Shown in pieces: positions 5,053-55,641 of a stretch of DNA of 64,000 nt. The translations under genes and the position numbers were made by a program. The notes beneath the pieces were generated by a model. That model made no database searches. It was given only the letters and a program-made list of their open reading frames with translations, and was not told where the DNA came from. The DNA comes from Dehalococcoidia bacterium (GTDB lineage Bacteria > Chloroflexota > Dehalococcoidia > Lucifugimonadales > UBA3495). Within the stretch, counting starts at the first letter, position 1, and each line of letters starts with the position of its first letter. The DNA is taken from contig CBDFLG010000001.1 of NCBI GenBank assembly GCA_965249065.1, positions 1,414,646 through 1,478,645 of the forward strand, read 5' to 3'.

Positions 5053-7083
5053 CTAGGCGGGACTGGGCGCCGTCGGGGCGCGGGCGGGCAGGCGAGCCGG
5101 GACGCGGGCCGGTTCGGGCCACAGGGCGATGACGGTTCCCAATATCATCACCGGGCCAGCCACCCACATCCACCAGATTAGCGGGTTGACCAGAATCCGA
5201 AAGCCCGCGTCGCCGTCGGGCAGGCTCTCGCTGGGCACGACGTAGAAGTCCTCCACCGGCGTGGAGCGGATGGCGGCGCGGGTAGAGGCCATGTTGAAGG
5301 CGGGATAGAAAGCGCGGTTGGGGCTGATGGTATCCAGCAGTTGCCCGTCGCGGTAGACCTCCACCGACGAGATGAACTCGGTGCGGTTGCCGTAGGGAAT
5401 CTGCGCGGTGCCCAGATACTTGATTTCGTAGTTTTCGATGCTTGCGGTTTCGCCCGGCGACAGCACAACGTCCTTTTGCGTACTGAAGAACGAGGTCCCC
5501 ACGATGCCCAGCGCCACCATCAGCACCGAGAGATGCACGATGTAGCCGCCATAGCGGGGGCGGTTGGCCCAAATAAGTTGCAGGAAGGCGGCGGGATAGC
5601 TCTGCAACGCCCTCGTGATGGCCCCCACCGTGCTGGAATGGGCATGGGGCGAGAGGGCGCGCACCCGGGCTCGGGTGCCTCGATACCACTCCATCAGGAT
5701 TCCGGCTGCTACGAATGCTGCGAGGCCGAACCCGGCGACAGCGTATGACTGGCGCAGGCCCACCGCCAGCAGCACCACGACGGTCAGCGCGGCAACGCCG
5801 GCCGGCACGGTCAGGGCGCGGCGGATGCTGGCCCAGTTGGCGCGGCGCCACGGCAGCATTGGCCCCACGCCCATCAGGAACAGCAGCGCCAGCATGAGCG
5901 GCCCGTTGACTTGGTCGTAGAACGGGCGGGCCACGGTTATCTCTTCATCGCTGGCTAGGCGCGAGATGAGGGGATATACCGTGCCCCACAGGGTCACGAA
6001 GGCGATGGCCAGCAGCAGCAGGTTGTTGACCAGGAACGCGGCCTCGCGGGAAAGCATCGAGTCCAGGTTCTGAGCGCTCTTCAGCAGGGGGTAGCGCCAG
6101 AAGAATATGACGAAGGGAACAATCACGCCCACGGCCAGGAAGATCAGGAACACCCAGCCTAGGCTGGAAGCCCCGAACGAATGCACCGACGGCACCGCCC
6201 CGCCCCGGTTCATAAACATCCCGTACAGGGCCAGCCCGAAGGCCACGTTGACCAAAGCGATGTTCCACATTCGGAACATTCCCCGCCGCTTCTGCACCAT
6301 GATGGAGTGGATGAAGGCGGTAAGGGCCAGCCAGGGCATGAAGGCCGCGTTTTCCACGGGGTCCCAGAACCAGTAGCCGCCCCAGCCGAGGATGGTGTAG
6401 GCCCACCAGGAGCCCAACAACAGCCCTCCGGCCAGCAGCGCCCAGGTTATGATGCCCCAGACGCGCCCGGGATCCACCCACTCATCGCCGGTCTTCCGGG
6501 CCAGCAGCGAGCCGAGCGCGAAGGCGAAGGGGATGCTGATTCCCACCAGCCCGGCCATCAGAGCAGGCGGATGGAAGAACATACCGAAGTGGGTGAGCAG
6601 CGGGTTGATGCCCTCGCCATCAAGCGGCGTGAATGGCAGCTTCTCGAAGGGGTTGGCCATCACGGCGGTGACGGCGAGGAAGAAGGTCAGCACCAGCATC
6701 AGAACGCCGGTGGTGTAGGGCAGGGCGTCGCGCACCCGCTCCGGGGCGCGCCAGACCGCCACCGACGCCATTACCGCCAGCACCATGGCTATGTAGAGCA
6801 GCGACCCCTCGTTGCCGGCGTAGAAGGCAACCCAAGTGAAGCGGTCGGGCATGGCCAGGTCGCTGTGCCTGGCCACGTAGGCAATCTCGAAGTCGCGCCC
6901 AATGAAGGAAACCACCAGGCTGAGCGTTGATACAAAGAGAACCACCACCGTGGCATACATCGCGGCCTGAGCGCTCTCGACCAATGCCGCCGAGCCGCGC
7001 AGCTTCCCGGCCACCGAGCCGGTGGCGGAGTAGGCGGCAAGGGCCAGGGCGAGCCACAGGCTGATGGCTCCCAGATCACCCAT
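5053..7083 (-). CDS. ccmF: cytochrome c-type biogenesis protein CcmF (haem lyase component)
   Basis: 676-aa polytopic protein with the WWD signature WGGYWFWDPVENAAFMPWL. CcmF-typical length and N terminus. Confidence 0.9.
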   Translation of the reverse strand: MGDLGAISLWLALALAAYSATGSVAGKLRGSAALVESAQAAMYATVVVLFVSTLSLVVSFIGRDFEIAYVARHSDLAMPDRFTWVAFYAGNEGSLLYIAMVLAVMASVAVWRAPERVRDALPYTTGVLMLVLTFFLAVTAVMANPFEKLPFTPLDGEGINPLLTHFGMFFHPPALMAGLVGISIPFAFALGSLLARKTGDEWVDPGRVWGIITWALLAGGLLLGSWWAYTILGWGGYWFWDPVENAAFMPWLALTAFIHSIMVQKRRGMFRMWNIALVNVAFGLALYGMFMNRGGAVPSVHSFGASSLGWVFLIFLAVGVIVPFVIFFWRYPLLKSAQNLDSMLSREAAFLVNNLLLLAIAFVTLWGTVYPLISRLASDEEITVARPFYDQVNGPLMLALLFLMGVGPMLPWRRANWASIRRALTVPAGVAALTVVVLLAVGLRQSYAVAGFGLAAFVAAGILMEWYRGTRARVRALSPHAHSSTVGAITRALQSYPAAFLQLIWANRPRYGGYIVHLSVLMVALGIVGTSFFSTQKDVVLSPGETASIENYEIKYLGTAQIPYGNRTEFISSVEVYRDGQLLDTISPNRAFYPAFNMASTRAAIRSTPVEDFYVVPSESLPDGDAGFRILVNPLIWWMWVAGPVMILGTVIALWPEPARVPARLPARAPTAPSPA

Positions 7084-7140
7084 CGTTTCCTCTTTTTATT
7101 AAACGCCGAAAATACAGAGCGCCGGCTAATCGGCATCCCG

Positions 7141-7173
7141 TCGGCATCCCGAAGGAATCGGGATTTAATCTAC
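7141..7173. repeat. 33-nt direct repeat with 7-bp hairpin (copy 1), overlapping the ccmH stop codon
   Basis: tcggcatcccgaaggaatcgggatttaatctac is 32/33 identical to 8312-8344. The hairpin is atcccga-aggaa-tcgggat (7146-7164). Confidence 0.75.
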
Positions 7174-7755
7174 TCCATTGTTTTTGCCGGGTTTAGCCCG
7201 GCGGGAAGCCAGCAGCCGGTCGGCAATTTCCAGGTACGGAGCCAGGTCCGGGTCGCTTGGCGGCTGAGTCGCCTCGGCGGCAGCGGGGCCGCCTGCCGCC
7301 CCCGGCTCTGAGGATGCCCTGCCCCGCCCGGTCATGGCCCGGATTACCAAGAACACTCCGCCCAGACCGGCGGCCACGCCCACGATGGGCAGAATCCAGG
7401 CCAGCAGGTTTACTCCCGACTTGGGCGGCGCGGCCAGGATGTCGGGGCCATAGCGGTCAACGAAGTAGTCTAGGATTTCCTCGCGGGGCCTCCCTTCGGC
7501 CAGCATCTCTCTTACTACGGCGCGCATCTGAAAGGAGATTTCCACTTGAGCCTGGTCAATGGTCTCGGCGGGACAGACGGGGCACATAATCATCCGGTCG
7601 ATGGCCTGGGCTTCCTCTTCCAGCGCCTCATCTGTATCAGGGGCGGGCGGCGTCTGCGCCTGGGCTGCCGGAACCGCCGTCACGAACCCGATGGCAAGGG
7701 CGGCGAGGATACAGAGCAGACACAGGGGCCAAAGAGAATCCTTGACGGACAACAA
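7165..7755 (-). CDS. ccmH: cytochrome c-type biogenesis protein CcmH/CycL/NrfF-like
   Basis: Signal peptide, then MCPVCPAETIDQ (the CxxC of CcmH), a YFVDRYG motif and a C-terminal TM. Start set to TTG 7755 (AAGGGGG 5 nt upstream). The track start at 7866 would place a terminal inverted repeat of a repeat element inside the coding region. Confidence 0.8.
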   Translation of the reverse strand: MLSVKDSLWPLCLLCILAALAIGFVTAVPAAQAQTPPAPDTDEALEEEAQAIDRMIMCPVCPAETIDQAQVEISFQMRAVVREMLAEGRPREEILDYFVDRYGPDILAAPPKSGVNLLAWILPIVGVAAGLGGVFLVIRAMTGRGRASSEPGAAGGPAAAEATQPPSDPDLAPYLEIADRLLASRRAKPGKNNGVD

Positions 7756-7813
7756 GAACGCCCCCTTGATATTAACGCAGAGGTTGCGGATTGCGCGCAG
7801 AGGGCGCACTACT

Positions 7814-8248
7814 GTGCAGGGCCTTTTAATTCTCTCTCCATCTGAGCCGGGGTGGAGGGGATACAAGGTCTTCTTACCCCCCTAACCTTCCTAACCTTCC
7901 TATGATGCTGCCTGAGTGGCTGGATTTTTTTCGGTTTCCCGGTCAATTCCGGCCATTTCCGGTCGCTTTTGTGGGTTCCGCCGCGGGGCCGGGTTGCGGA
8001 CGGATTTAGGGCGGGTGTCACGACTTCACTAGCATTCTTCACTGGCATTATGGTAGGGAGGCGTCACAGGGCTTGGCAAGGGGGAACTGTCAGCAGTTTT
8101 AGTTTCTCAGGTTCAGGGCGGTTGCGACGGAACGGGGCTGTCCTGCTGATGGAGGGACGTCCGGCGGGTATGGCAGGAAGGCAGAAGGTTTTCCTGCTGG
8201 GGAGCATGGGGGGGACAGGGGACTGCCAACAACTAAAAGGCCCTGCAC
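7814..8248. mobile_element. MITE-like non-autonomous element (435 bp) with 15-bp perfect terminal inverted repeats and a 4-bp target duplication
   Basis: The left end gtgcagggcctttta (7814-7828) is the exact reverse complement of the right end taaaaggccctgcac (8234-8248). Both ends are flanked by tact (7810-7813 and 8249-8252). The outer flanks gggcgcac and gtgcgccc would re-form a REP-type hairpin if the element were removed. No ORF of convincing coding character lies inside. Confidence 0.5.
8050..8079 (-). promoter_or_regulatory. promoter-like module TTGCCA-18-TACCAT facing ccmH, inside the MITE-like element
   Basis: Minus strand reads cccccTTGCCAagccctgtgacgcctcccTACCATaat. A 47-nt block is 38/47 identical to 54928-54974, which faces another gene. 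Confidence 0.35.
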
Positions 8249-8311
8249 TACTGTGCGCCCCTACACGTATTTTACCGGCGTTCTTGGCGCCGCGCCCGGC
8301 GCGCCAACGCA

Positions 8312-8344
8312 TCGGCATCCCGAAGGAATCGGGATTTAGTCTAC
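8312..8344. repeat. 33-nt direct repeat with 7-bp hairpin (copy 2), just 3' of the actE-like stop
   Basis: tcggcatcccgaaggaatcgggatttagtctac, with the hairpin at 8317-8335. Confidence 0.75.
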
Positions 8345-8349
8345 ATCGG

Positions 8350-8976
8350 TTACTTGGGCAGCGAGCCGACGTACTGGACAATGGCCTCGCGCTCGTCTTC
8401 GCTGAGTAGCTTGCCGAAAGGCGGCATTATCGAGGTGGGGCCGAACGGGCGGGTGGCCGACTTCAGATAACCTGCAATAACGTTCGGCTCCAGCACCGTG
8501 AGGTTGGGCGGCCTAGGCTCAAGCGTCTCGGGATCCAATAGGCTGTACTCATACCCGTAGCCGCCTTCCGGTTGGCTCATGGTCAGCCTCTGAAGCACGG
8601 GGCCGCTGTCCTTGCCGTCTGACCCGTGGCACATCTGGCAGTTGACCTCGAACAGGTGCGCGGCGGAGTCATCGGTGGTGTTGGGTGGCGAAGGATAGAA
8701 AGCCACCGCCCCAGCTACCCCGGACAGGCGCGGGGGCTCGTGGGACTTGTACGACTGCTGGTAATGCTGCTCGTAGAAAACATCCACGGGGTAGCTGCCG
8801 GAAGTACAACCGGCTGCGGCCAGTGCGGCGAACAGCATCAGGAAGAGAGAGAAGATGAGCGGGAAACGGCGTGGGGCCGTTCTCGCGCGCTCCCGCTTCA
8901 ACCCTGTGCGCTCACTGTCCCCAGGGGAATGGGAACTTCGATTGTCCTGCAGGCGGCTCAAAATAAGGAACGTCAT
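8350..8976 (-). CDS. actE: monohaem cytochrome c lipoprotein (ACIII ActE-like)
   Basis: Lipobox AALAAAGC, a single CQMCH haem motif, and position as the last gene of the Act-like operon. Confidence 0.75.
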   Translation of the reverse strand: MTFLILSRLQDNRSSHSPGDSERTGLKRERARTAPRRFPLIFSLFLMLFAALAAAGCTSGSYPVDVFYEQHYQQSYKSHEPPRLSGVAGAVAFYPSPPNTTDDSAAHLFEVNCQMCHGSDGKDSGPVLQRLTMSQPEGGYGYEYSLLDPETLEPRPPNLTVLEPNVIAGYLKSATRPFGPTSIMPPFGKLLSEDEREAIVQYVGSLPK

Positions 8977-8992
8977 TTCAGGATACTGGCCT

Positions 8993-9502
8993 CTAATTCT
9001 CGCGTACCACGTCGATGGCGCCCGCTTGGGTGAAGAGGGTGGACACCTGGGTAAGCTGTTCCTCTTCCACGTTGGCCAGCACCCCGATATAGCCCTCGGT
9101 GATCCGGGTATCGTAGAGGCCCTGCTTGAAGCTGGGCAGCCGCGACTCGAACACGATCCCGATGATGGTGAAGATTATGGCCGTCAGCATGGTGCTTTCG
9201 TAGGTCACCACCGCCATCGGAGGCAGGGACAGGATGGGCTTGCCGGCCTGCACCAGAGGGTAGGCCATCTGAGTCATCGAGGTCAGCAGTATGCCGATGG
9301 TCAGGCCCACCAGCGCGCCGCACAAGGGGAATATGTACAGCCGATGCCCCTCGTGCCGCTCCCCGAACGCGCCCTCCGGGTACGGCGCGTCGGTCAGGAA
9401 GTCGTAGTCGCTGGGGGAAACGCCGGCCTGCTGCAGGGCGTCGCCGGCCTCCGCCGCATAGTCCGCGTCTTCAAACAGCCCCAGTATCGGTCGTTTAGCC
9501 AT
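8993..9502 (-). CDS. actD: DUF3341-like two-TM subunit (ACIII ActD-like)
   Basis: Soluble N-terminal domain (ILGLFEDADYAAEAGDALQQAG) followed by two TM helices. Its position is between the NrfD-like and cytochrome c genes. Confidence 0.65.
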   Translation of the reverse strand: MAKRPILGLFEDADYAAEAGDALQQAGVSPSDYDFLTDAPYPEGAFGERHEGHRLYIFPLCGALVGLTIGILLTSMTQMAYPLVQAGKPILSLPPMAVVTYESTMLTAIIFTIIGIVFESRLPSFKQGLYDTRITEGYIGVLANVEEEQLTQVSTLFTQAGAIDVVREN

Positions 9503-18987: not shown

Positions 18988-19013
18988 CAGGGGCGCACAG
19001 CCGTGCGCCCCTG
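18988..19013. terminator. hairpin caggggcgcac-agcc-gtgcgcccctg between convergent genes
   Basis: 11-bp GC stem followed by cgtgtttcc on the plus strand. Same REP family as 1131-1158 and the flanks of the MITE-like element. Confidence 0.55.
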
Positions 19014-54109: not shown

Positions 54110-54346
54110 CAGGGCAATCGCGTTTTAATTCGTAACGGCCCAATGCTTCGCTATTTTGAAGTTTCGGCACTCTGGAAACCCTTGAATTACCATGCAGGAT
54201 GCGGCAGGATGCGAGATGTGAACGGCTTGATGGCTAAGGAGGCATCAAGAAAAGCAAGGTTTTGGCCGAAGCACACTGTCCTTTGTCGTTATTATTGGAC
54301 CATTTGATACTCATTATGGCCGAAAGGTTATAACGCGATTGCCCTG
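54110..54346. repeat. inverted pair of the CAGGGCAATCGCGTT motif enclosing about 207 nt of AT-richer DNA
   Basis: cagggcaatcgcgtt at 54110-54124 and its exact reverse complement at 54332-54346. Confidence 0.8.
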
Positions 54347-54407
54347 TCGCAGCGCAGCCTGGGGGGCAAGGTCTTTTGATTGTGGCAGAACGTCTCCCTA
54401 CATAGCG

Positions 54408-54779
54408 CTACCACGACCGGACGAAATTTGCCAGGGGGCCGTTGGGGCCGCACTGGGGATAGAGGCTTTGTATGATGCTGAGGGGGTTGGGGCAGGTGTT
54501 GGATTTTTGGCAGCGCTCTAGGTATCGGTGAAGGTCGGTAAAGGTGTTTAGGCGGAAGCCGCGGGCGACTAGCCGCTGGATGAAGGGCTGGGACACGGGC
54601 AAGGAGCCAGGGGCCGGGGCCGGGCTGCTGCTGCCGGCGTTGGCGCGTTCGACGGCCCACTGGTCGCAGAATTCTTCGGCGATGGGGTGGAGGCGCGCTA
54701 CGGCTAGGGGGATAGCGTATTTGCGGCGCAGGTAATCGATGCGGTTTCTGACCTGGATCAAGGTCTGGCTTAAGGACAT
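54408..54779 (-). CDS. hypothetical protein
   Basis: 123-aa ORF with ordinary amino-acid composition (MSLSQTLIQVRNRIDYLRRKYAIPLAV...). No motif recognised. Confidence 0.5.
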   Translation of the reverse strand: MSLSQTLIQVRNRIDYLRRKYAIPLAVARLHPIAEEFCDQWAVERANAGSSSPAPAPGSLPVSQPFIQRLVARGFRLNTFTDLHRYLERCQKSNTCPNPLSIIQSLYPQCGPNGPLANFVRSW

Positions 54780-54929
54780 GGTTTCAGCTCCGGCGCGTAT
54801 TTGGATGGGCTGGCGGGCTGGAAATTTTCACTTTCCCGGTCATTTCCGCTCATTTCCGGCCGTTTCCGCCAGTGGCTGGATTTGGGCTGGGTTTTGGTGT
54901 TGGCGGGGTTTCCGATCGGTACATAAATA

Positions 54930-54959
54930 ATGCTACGGGGGTGTGCCAGGGGTTGGCAA
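54930..54959 (-). promoter_or_regulatory. promoter-like module TTGCCA-18-TAGCAT facing the 54408-54779 gene
   Basis: Minus strand reads cccccTTGCCAacccctggcacacccccgTAGCATtat. The block is 38/47 identical to 8047-8093. Confidence 0.35.
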
Positions 54960-55074
54960 GGGGGAAGTGTCAGGAACAAGCGGTGGGGGCTTTCAACAAT
55001 AATGCTACGGGGGGGCACCACAGAGGCACAGAGGACGCAGAGGGAACATGAGGGCATCCGCAAGTCCCTTGTCC

Positions 55075-55641
55075 TTAGCAGGACGGCAAGCCACCGAGGT
55101 CGGACTCGCTGCTCAACCGGCGTAGCAGACGGTTTGGTACGCACCCGCTCAACTGGTTCGCGTGGAGGGTCAGCCCTATCAGGTTGGCGAGGCTGCCCAA
55201 CTCTGGCGGTATCTCCCCGCTCAACTGGTTAAAGCCGAGGTTCAGCACTGTCAGGTTGGCGAGGTTGCCTAGCTCCGGCGGTATCTCCCCGCTCAACTGG
55301 TTCCTGTTGAGTTCCAGGTCAATGACACGGCCGTGGTAGTTGGTGGTTACGCCGTGCCATTCGCCGAGTGGCGCGTCGCTCAGCCAGTTATCGCTGTAAC
55401 GCCAATTTGGGCCGTCAGTGGAGTCGTAGAGGGCAACCAGCGTTGCTCGGTCCGTTTCGGGCGAGGTCGTCGCAAGTTGGGGTGTGCCCCTGGGGGTGGG
55501 TGGAACCCTTTCTTCGGACTGGGTGCTTCCGGGCTGGCGCGTTGGGGCATCGCCCCCGTTGCAGGCGGCTAACAGGAGCGAGGCTGATAGAATCAGCGCA
55601 AGGATGGTGCAGAGCGGGACGAGTCGCGAGCATTGGGGCAT
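55075..55641 (-). CDS. lipoprotein with plant-type leucine-rich repeats
   Basis: Lipobox LLLAAC. Cap-like DRATLVALYDSTDGPNWRYSDNWLSDAPLGEWHGVTT. Three 24-residue repeats LxLxxNQLSGEIPPELGxLANL. Confidence 0.8.
   Translation of the reverse strand: MPQCSRLVPLCTILALILSASLLLAACNGGDAPTRQPGSTQSEERVPPTPRGTPQLATTSPETDRATLVALYDSTDGPNWRYSDNWLSDAPLGEWHGVTTNYHGRVIDLELNRNQLSGEIPPELGNLANLTVLNLGFNQLSGEIPPELGSLANLIGLTLHANQLSGCVPNRLLRRLSSESDLGGLPSC

Follow-up and report, generated by a model that had tools for sequence, protein, structure and literature searches.

A probable ISAs1-type miniature inverted-repeat element, derived from a promoter-bearing cassette, in a REP-type hairpin upstream of ccmH in a Dehalococcoidia bacterium

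We analysed a stretch of 64,000 nucleotides from a Dehalococcoidia bacterium (GenBank assembly GCA_965249065.1), hereafter called the window, which corresponds to C1:1414646-1478645 in a genome of 3.83 Mb assembled in two contigs (C1 and C2) with a completeness of 94.9%. In the window, a co-directional string of minus-strand genes reads actC-actD-cytochrome c-ccmH-ccmF, the products of the first two being an NrfD-type ActC (PF03916) and ActD (PF11821), and the string is interrupted between the ActE-like cytochrome c gene and ccmH by a segment that an initial annotation, made from the letters alone, had described as a 435-bp element resembling a miniature inverted-repeat transposable element (MITE) in the loop of a hairpin of the repetitive extragenic palindrome (REP) type. 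We confirmed that the observation was real, and the interpretation as a MITE was supported. In our reading, which we hold with high though not complete confidence, positions 7817-8245 are a MITE with ISAs1-family ends that came from a promoter-bearing passenger cassette and now interrupts a REP-type hairpin. Beyond the initial annotation, the analysis gives revised ends and a revised target-site duplication (TSD), an assignment to the ISAs1 family with a cognate insertion sequence (IS) in sister species, and an origin of the interior in a cassette. The features at the locus, including the terminal inverted repeats (TIRs), are as follows.

7165-7755, minus strand: ccmH, with a TTG start at 7755 (PF03918 CcmH, 95 bits; relatives)
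7802-7809: left arm of the pre-insertion REP-type hairpin, GGGCGCAC, the last 3 bp being the first 3 bp of the duplication
7807-7816: left TSD copy, 10 bp, CACTACTGTG, its length set from the duplications of other copies
7817-8245, 429 bp: MITE of subfamily A1, non-autonomous, ISAs1-type (near-full copies elsewhere; site empty in congeners)
7817-7836, plus strand: left TIR, CAGGGCCTTTTAATTCTCTC (alignment of copies)
8226-8245, minus strand: right TIR, read inwards CAGGGCCTTTTAGTTGTTGG, matching the left end at 12 of 12 positions and at 15 of 20 over 20 nt
8246-8255: right TSD copy, 10 bp, CACTACTGTG (sequence and direct-repeat search)
8253-8260: right arm of the pre-insertion REP-type hairpin, GTGCGCCC (sequence and fold)
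8350-8976, minus strand: monohaem cytochrome c (ActE-like) gene, the last gene before the insertion (PF13442, PF00034)

The letters from which the initial annotation had argued are all in place, namely GGGCGCAC (7802-7809), TACT (7810-7813) and GTGCAGGGCCTTTTA (7814-7828) on the left, and TAAAAGGCCCTGCAC (8234-8248), TACT (8249-8252) and GTGCGCCC (8253-8260) on the right. A repeat search recovered a 30-nt inverted pair (7802-7831 and 8231-8260) and a 12-nt direct repeat, GCACTACTGTGC (7806-7817 and 8245-8256), and the 15-mer of the termini was found to occur exactly twice in the 64 kb, once on each strand, where shuffled sequences would lead one to expect 0.10 occurrences. The division of these repeats between element and target had to be revised. 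When other copies from the genome were aligned with their flanks, similarity always began at CAGGGCCTTTT and finished at AAAAGGCCCTG, which places the limits of the mobile unit at a CAGGG start (7817) and a CCCTG finish (8245) and gives an element of 429 bp, not 435 bp, with the ends CAGGGCCTTTTA...TAAAAGGCCCTG. The 15-bp inverted repeats are therefore perfect as letters but not as transposon ends, the perfect TIR being 12 bp counted from CAGGG, and the supposed 4-bp duplication TACT gives way to the 10-bp CACTACTGTG when the other copies are considered. The additional 3 bp (GTG/CAC) and the 4-bp duplication had entered the earlier reading because the target is itself palindromic.

Further copies and empty sites, which the initial annotation had proposed as checks, were both found. 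A 463-nt query gave 70 BLAST pieces in this genome, among them eight near-full copies with 86-92% identity to that in the window (one lying ~10 kb before the window), in addition to dozens of related elements. In the superfamily, ~41 elements have perfect 9-10-bp duplications, which differ from site to site (AGACAGCGGC, ATGGAGGGTC, GGCGATACCG, ACGGAAAGGG, CGTGACGAGC, GGACGCTCT and others). Sequences matching the ccmH-like and cytochrome c flanks were present in 39 of the 40 genomes of the genus and were adjacent wherever both matched; in the 15 congeneric loci that we read, the actE-ccmH spacer measured 60-190 nt and contained the element in no case, and several of these loci carry an uninterrupted GCGC-N7-GCGC hairpin, e.g. 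CCGCGCCCACTGTGCGC, ~15 nt upstream of the ccmH start. As had been noted, the interior holds no convincing open reading frame (ORF), the longest (49-146 aa) lying in unsupported frames, and searches of the genome with NF033564 and PF01609 (DDE_Tnp_1) gave no transposase in the window, other transposase and integrase families not having been screened. The segment has the properties of a MITE, being short (429 bp, against a usual limit of ~600 bp) and without a transposase-sized ORF after deletion of a passenger ORF described below, with TIRs, a duplication that varies among sites, multiple copies and empty sites in relatives, and its description as a non-autonomous, multi-copy element with TIRs and a TSD in a REP-type hairpin stands.

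Removal of the element and one duplicate restores a hairpin, as had been claimed, and the empty site GGGCGCAC-TACT-GTGCGCCC is the same under either reading of the boundaries. The reconstructed site, GGGCGCACTACTGTGCGCCC, has an 8-bp stem and a 4-nt loop (-11.4 kcal/mol, z = -2.3) and is a member of a REP-like family, GGCGCAC-N4-GTGCGCC, of which the genome has 83 copies versus 1 in a shuffled genome; as in other REP-type palindromes, it is a short GC-rich hairpin with many intergenic copies. The insertion did enter a hairpin, but not the loop alone, since the staggered cut took in the loop together with the uppermost 3 bp on either side of the stem. Of the two intact relatives cited earlier from the window, the copy at 18992 is genuine, but the sequence at 1131-1158 is only a diverged relative. 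Hairpin targeting was also considered as a trait of the MITE family and was rejected, a strong hairpin being present at only one of the ~41 elements with perfect duplications, the window copy. We observed, in addition, that REP hairpins (GGGGCGCACAGCCGTGCGCCC, preceded by AATAAATGTAG) lie inside two MITE copies (C1:~839616 and C2:~1341183) just after the -10 sequence, which shows that REP units have been mobile as well.

Members of the ISAs1 family have inverted repeats of 14-22 bp beginning with CAGGG and generate 10-bp direct repeats (PMC11946415); ISArsp11, for example, is 1306 bp long, with the inverted repeat CAGGGCTGATGCAAAGTCG and a 10-bp duplication (PMC6305408). Because its CAGGG ends and 10-bp duplication match this published signature, we assigned the window element to the ISAs1 family. 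The CAGGG ends have inverted repeats in the 14-22-bp range, and the repeats at ~41 sites, at 9-10 bp, fall within the 8-10 bp (typically 10 bp) of the family. An IS with the same ends was found to encode an ISAs1 transposase. The terminal consensus CAGGGCCTTTTCATTCTC is present at at least 118 loci in species-representative genomes, nearly all those listed being in metagenome-assembled genomes of Dehalococcoidia, and, among the matches listed, paired ends repeatedly delimit an element of 1273 bp whose flanking 9-10-bp duplications are perfect (e.g. L089:4512-5784), as well as many MITEs of 154-184 bp. The 1273-bp IS is full-length in at least 5 of the 40 congeners (G021, with at least 10 copies, G003, G046, G012 and G045), and its ORFs score 146 bits (ORF1, model positions 1-184) and 96 bits (ORF2, model positions 198-313) against NF033564, the model for ISAs1 family transposases, for which the cut-off is 70 bits. 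The left end of the window element differs from the IS end, CAGGGCCTTTTCATTTTC, at 2 of 18 positions and from the searched consensus CAGGGCCTTTTCATTCTC at 1 of 18, and the IS and the MITE have only these ends of ~18-20 bp in common. The search for an autonomous partner, which the initial annotation had recommended, was thus successful in congeners but gave no match in this assembly.

The ISAs1-type genes resident in this genome have other ends (CAGGGCTATCGCATTTGG, CAGGGCAAACGCATTCTAA and CAGGACGATTGCAAAGTC). Those of the type CAGGACGATTGCAAAGTC match a second and more abundant MITE family, B, with 26 copies flanked by perfect duplications and an internal core ~70% identical to that of the window element. 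A further MITE family of ~173 bp, with CAGGGCTATCGCATTTGGATTT / CAGGGCTATCGCATTAGAAAA ends, occurs at many loci (e.g. C1:684850-685022 and C1:744868-745040), and its ends are those of the resident group-1 ISAs1-type genes (C2:2086130, C2:2158522 and C1:607306). Two end pairs 1.6-1.8 kb apart (C1:533445-535116 and C1:1245722-1247532) were rejected as an autonomous partner, the ORFs between them being ordinary or lipoprotein-like and none a transposase. In every copy of the 1273-bp IS examined (L089:4512-5784 and ~20 others in congeners, including L091, L096, L105, L112 and L120), the transposase gene is split by a +1 frame change at a GTATTTTCCCCC site (GTA TTT TCC CCC), which may represent either a programmed frameshift, unusual for ISAs1, or a systematic homopolymer error of long-read assemblies. 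Because the copies are 86-92% identical and the assembly contains no cognate transposase, the window element is probably dormant in this genome.

The window element proved to be a deletion derivative of cassettes of ~840 bp and not an internally deleted IS, and what it retains corresponds to the predicted promoter and leader of a deleted 113-aa ORF. Its internal features are listed below.

7881-7898, plus strand: 9-nt tandem repeat, CCTAACCTT, with 2 copies here and 1-4 among the copies
7904-7905: deletion junction CCTATG/ATGCTGCC, relative to the ORF-bearing copy C2:182375-183146; ~350 bp lost
7935-7965, minus strand: three 10-bp phased repeats, GACCGGAAAT GGCCGGAATT GACCGGGAAA, in the leader of the lost ORF
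8024-8049, minus strand: 13-nt tandem repeat, 2 copies, directly downstream of the -10 (repeat search; 1-5 copies among the family)
8050-8079, minus strand: sigma-70-like promoter TTGCCA-18 nt-TACCAT, pointing at ccmH, predicted from sequence only

The longer members of the family (505-850 bp) differ from the window copy by an extra segment of ~350 bp between element positions 80 and 91, which encodes the 113-aa ORF on the strand opposite to the plus strand of the window. The sequence lost at the junction, CCTAYG/ATGCTGCC, runs from ~21 nt before the start codon through the last sense codon. This junction is common to seven of the eight short copies, so that the short form arose once and then transposed. 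In family copies the variable-number 13-mer, which reads GCCAAGAAGTTAT or GCCAGTGAAGAAT, stands directly after the -10, and the 9-mer CCTAACCTT, likewise variable in number, is located near the left end of the element.

The deleted ORF appears to be a real gene, because tblastn gave 47 matches in the genome, the 19 copies examined contained no stop codon and the ratio of non-synonymous to synonymous substitution (Ka/Ks) was ~0.5. The matches fall into three protein subfamilies, mutually 52-58% identical. A profile search of 1.84 billion cluster representatives yielded 389 relatives; the protein family is present in 30 of the 40 genomes of the genus, with 1-44 copies each, whereas among 301 genomes sampled from the class, the present one included, it was found in just one other genome outside the genus. 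The protein had no match in Pfam, NCBIfam, PHROGs, PADLOC or a sequence search of the PDB, its AlphaFold2 model is all-helical (predicted local distance difference test score, pLDDT, 78.5) with no Foldseek match in the PDB or BFVD, and its longer homologues carry no informative fused domain. This passenger ORF was found behind at least four different end types, CAGG-type ends surrounding it at 1 of 14 loci sampled in other genomes of the genus. At loci L206-L211 of the congener G044, ~40 copies of the small ORF lie in units of ~950 bp with the ends GAGAAAATTGCGAAAC...GTTTCGCAATTTTCTC and 6-9-bp duplications, and these different ends show that more than one type of end has been joined to the passenger.

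Only two short segments of the element can still be matched in other species of the genus, one being the promoter block and the other the phased-repeat leader (element positions 111-148). In fuller, two-gene modules (C2:650601-651972; L086:3437-4348), a helix-turn-helix (HTH) protein of 171-173 aa precedes the small ORF, and the translation of the phased repeats, 'EMTGNDRE', resembles residues 42-72 of this protein ('EMSGNGGE'); the repeats in the MITE may therefore represent a remnant of the early part (residues 42-72) of this HTH gene. The HTH protein itself showed weak, sub-threshold similarity to the HTH domains of transposases and terminase small subunits.

The promoter-like module that the initial annotation had placed upstream of ccmH was recovered as the only sigma-70-like site in 7600-8500, inside the element. 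It points toward ccmH, the start of which is 62 nt past the left end of the element. The corresponding block, CCCTTGCCA-N17-19-TAnnATwA, occurs 42 times in the genome and, in elements that have kept the small ORF, always precedes it. Among the 42 promoter-bearing elements, the first host gene downstream ran in the direction of the promoter in 36 cases and against it in 6 (binomial p = 1.4e-6), host genes being crude calls (GC3-supported ORFs of at least 120 aa with GC3>GC1>GC2, that is, G+C content ranked by codon position) and the ratio being nearer 34/39, at which the bias persists, when it is considered that two of the promoters lie in one tandem element and that one 'host gene' is the HTH gene of the module. 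The control on the upstream side gave 22:17. By type of region, 18 elements were in divergent regions, 16 in tandem regions with the promoter co-directional, 4 in tandem regions with the promoter anti-directional and 1 in a convergent region. The simplest reading would be that an insertion separating a gene from its promoter is retained only if the element supplies outward transcription, and promoter-out insertions upstream of genes may be those that have survived in the family. This family-wide bias lends indirect support to the suggestion, made in the initial annotation, that the element rewired the expression of ccmH.

Several points weigh against the reading of the segment as an ISAs1-type MITE with an outward promoter. 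The 1273-bp IS has no DNA match in this genome, an absence that is not absolute at 94.9% completeness, so that a cognate transposase was not found alongside the element; the right end of the window copy matches the IS over its first 12 nt only; and the resident ISAs1-type transposases are at best 33-38% identical and all partial or split across frames. With no cognate IS in the assembly and divergent resident transposases, an ISAs1 transposase can be named only as the putative mobilising enzyme, and present-day mobility is at most possible. To these must be added the crude gene calls and the reduced ratio of the orientation test, and the fact that promoter activity is a prediction from sequence and orientation statistics. 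The element might have been mobilised by an enzyme other than an ISAs1 transposase, either another resident DDE family or the 113-aa protein acting as, or together with, a recombinase. The lack of a cognate ISAs1 IS in this genome would be in keeping with this, as would the association of the small ORF with several end types, including the GAGAAAATTGCGAAAC ends with 6-9-bp duplications in G044, and the failure of library, PDB and fold searches to assign it a function. We nevertheless judge it very unlikely, because the 18-bp ends and 9-10-bp duplications are identical to those of the transposase-bearing ISAs1 IS of the sister species, the short form moved after loss of the ORF, so that the ORF is not needed in cis, and a 113-aa all-helical protein without similarity to nucleases or recombinases would be an improbable transposase. 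There is a substantial possibility, somewhat short of an even chance, that the MITE is a neutral fossil, its promoter inactive or irrelevant and ccmHF being transcribed by read-through from the act operon or by a promoter in what is left of the spacer. In favour of this, the minus strand of the element gave no terminator-like site, which makes read-through plausible, and the -10 (TACCAT) and -35 (TTGCCA) sequences agree with the consensus at no more than 9 of 12 positions. Against it stand the promoter block, which is among the best-conserved parts of the family, across subfamilies and the genus, and the strong 36:6 promoter-to-gene bias with its unbiased upstream control.

Two readings in which the segment did not arrive by DDE transposition fared worse. 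A conserved structured spacer or a non-coding RNA gene could be suspected from the intergenic position in a respiratory gene cluster and from the inverted-repeat ends, which could pair. However, many copies stand at unrelated loci, each with its own duplication, the orthologous spacer lacks the segment in 15 of 15 congeneric loci, the putative transcript (8045-7817) folds no better than shuffles (z = +1.45), and an Rfam scan of 7000-9000 identified no family, the single match, to a long non-coding RNA, being a chance one (E = 0.21) and outside the element; copy number and empty sites refute this reading, to which we give almost no credence. The same negligible weight is given to an extended palindrome of the REP or bacterial interspersed mosaic element (BIME) type, or a palindrome-associated element of the IS200/IS605 type. 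Such an origin is brought to mind by the REP hairpin at the site and by the REP copies inside two other MITE copies, but here the REP arms extend outside the duplicated 10-mer, other copies are without a flanking REP, and a TIR and a duplication occur together at ~41 sites. IS200/IS605-type elements have neither target duplications nor terminal inverted repeats, and with its TIR and 10-bp duplication the window element was excluded from them and from the REPtrons.

For the ISAs1-type MITE, the evidence gives the following course of events. The parent was a mobile insertion cassette (MIC) of ~840 bp with the same ends, containing the promoter, the 10-bp phased-repeat leader and the 113-aa passenger gene. 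A single deletion removed the passenger gene, and the ~430-bp form then transposed to at least seven sites. At the present locus, a DDE transposase, presumably acting in trans, cut a REP-type hairpin (GGGCG^CACTACTGTG^CGCCC) with a 10-bp stagger over its top, in a spacer of 60-190 nt that lay between ccmH and the ActE-like cytochrome c gene, and repair of the cut left CACTACTGTG duplicated. The retained promoter may fire out of the left end of the element into ccmH-ccmF, and the insertion has probably cut ccmHF off from act-gene read-through without silencing ccmHF. A more far-reaching proposal, which we consider unlikely, is that the cassette is a genus-specific promoter-out hitchhiker that has repeatedly gained different ISAs1-type ends and persists by compensating for or rewiring host transcription, ccmHF being now driven by the transposon; the small protein could then bind the 10-bp repeats and regulate the promoter, or could recruit the transposase in trans.

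The insertion also bears on the annotation of ccmH, whose start had been proposed at a TTG at 7755. Relatives begin at the equivalent TTG behind a GGAG Shine-Dalgarno sequence, and their N-termini align with the 196-aa product that results. The frame remains open for 37 codons upstream of this TTG (7756-7866, minus strand), through the left end of the MITE, and the 233-aa product of the ORF track, with its start at 7866, is due to this accidental opening of the frame into the element.

A second member of the superfamily is present in the window:

54367-55060, minus strand: subfamily-C cassette with an intact 123-aa ORF (54408-54779)

This cassette has the conserved promoter near 54925-54962 and the end CAAGGTCTTTTGATTGTGGCAG at 54367, its other end being degenerate. 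It follows a leucine-rich repeat (LRR) lipoprotein gene (55075-55641, minus strand), an arrangement seen also at two or three other loci of the genome. Abutting the cassette is a 238-bp segment (54110-54347) with CAGGGCAATCGCG...CGCGATTGCCCTG ends, a third ISAs1-like end type, and no recognisable duplication; the same composite occurs at C2:~1203134 and C2:~1405900.

For annotation, these results correct the ccmH start to the TTG at 7755 and explain an anomalous 595-nt spacer in a respiratory gene cluster. More widely, they document an undescribed superfamily of ISAs1-derived MITEs and cassettes in uncultured, SAR202-like Dehalococcoidia, with dozens of copies in one 3.8-Mb genome, a partner IS identified in sister species, a clear promoter-to-gene bias and an amplified passenger protein without a library match. 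If the promoter is active, the locus would show in a concrete instance how a transposon can detach cytochrome c maturation genes from the operon that precedes them, and if the hitchhiker proposal is true, ccmHF would have been uncoupled from an alternative complex III operon. The class and mechanism of the element are ordinary, and knowledge of how MITEs work is unchanged by these findings; what deserves following up is the passenger protein, together with the promoter-out bias. To our knowledge, no ISAs1-derived MITE family has been described in Dehalococcoidia, and a literature search for such a family found none.

The window element shares with the ISs of the ISAs1 family (ISAs1, IS1358, H-repeat/ISEc1, ISArsp11 and ISPmar4) the CAGGG ends, the repeats of 14-22 bp and the 10-bp duplication, but lacks a transposase and has only the ends in common with its partner IS, which is not in this genome. 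The ISAs1 family is described as having one ORF, whereas the transposase of the partner is split by a +1 frame change in all copies examined. REP and BIME palindromes are known IS targets, e.g. in Pseudomonas and E. coli, and the present element likewise splits one copy of an extragenic palindrome that is repeated throughout the genome, but its family shows no target preference, only 1 of ~41 elements being in a strong hairpin. Bacterial MITEs are mobilised in trans, often lie near gene starts and exert promoter or terminator effects on their neighbours. Like Correia/NEMIS, RUP, BOX, Nezha and TIMEs (for the last, see PMC4133298), the window element is short, non-coding and multi-copy, with TIRs and a TSD, but its interior is the predicted promoter and leader of a passenger and not a remnant of the parent IS. 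A further comparison is with the MICs, such as MIC231 of Bacillus cereus, as that class is cited in PMC3281130. The ~840-bp parents (e.g. C2:530352-531188) share with them IS-type ends, a duplication, a passenger ORF and the absence of a transposase, but differ in that their passenger is restricted to the genus, reaches up to 44 copies per genome and is associated with at least four end types; the window copy, having lost this passenger, is to be classed as a MITE and not as a MIC.

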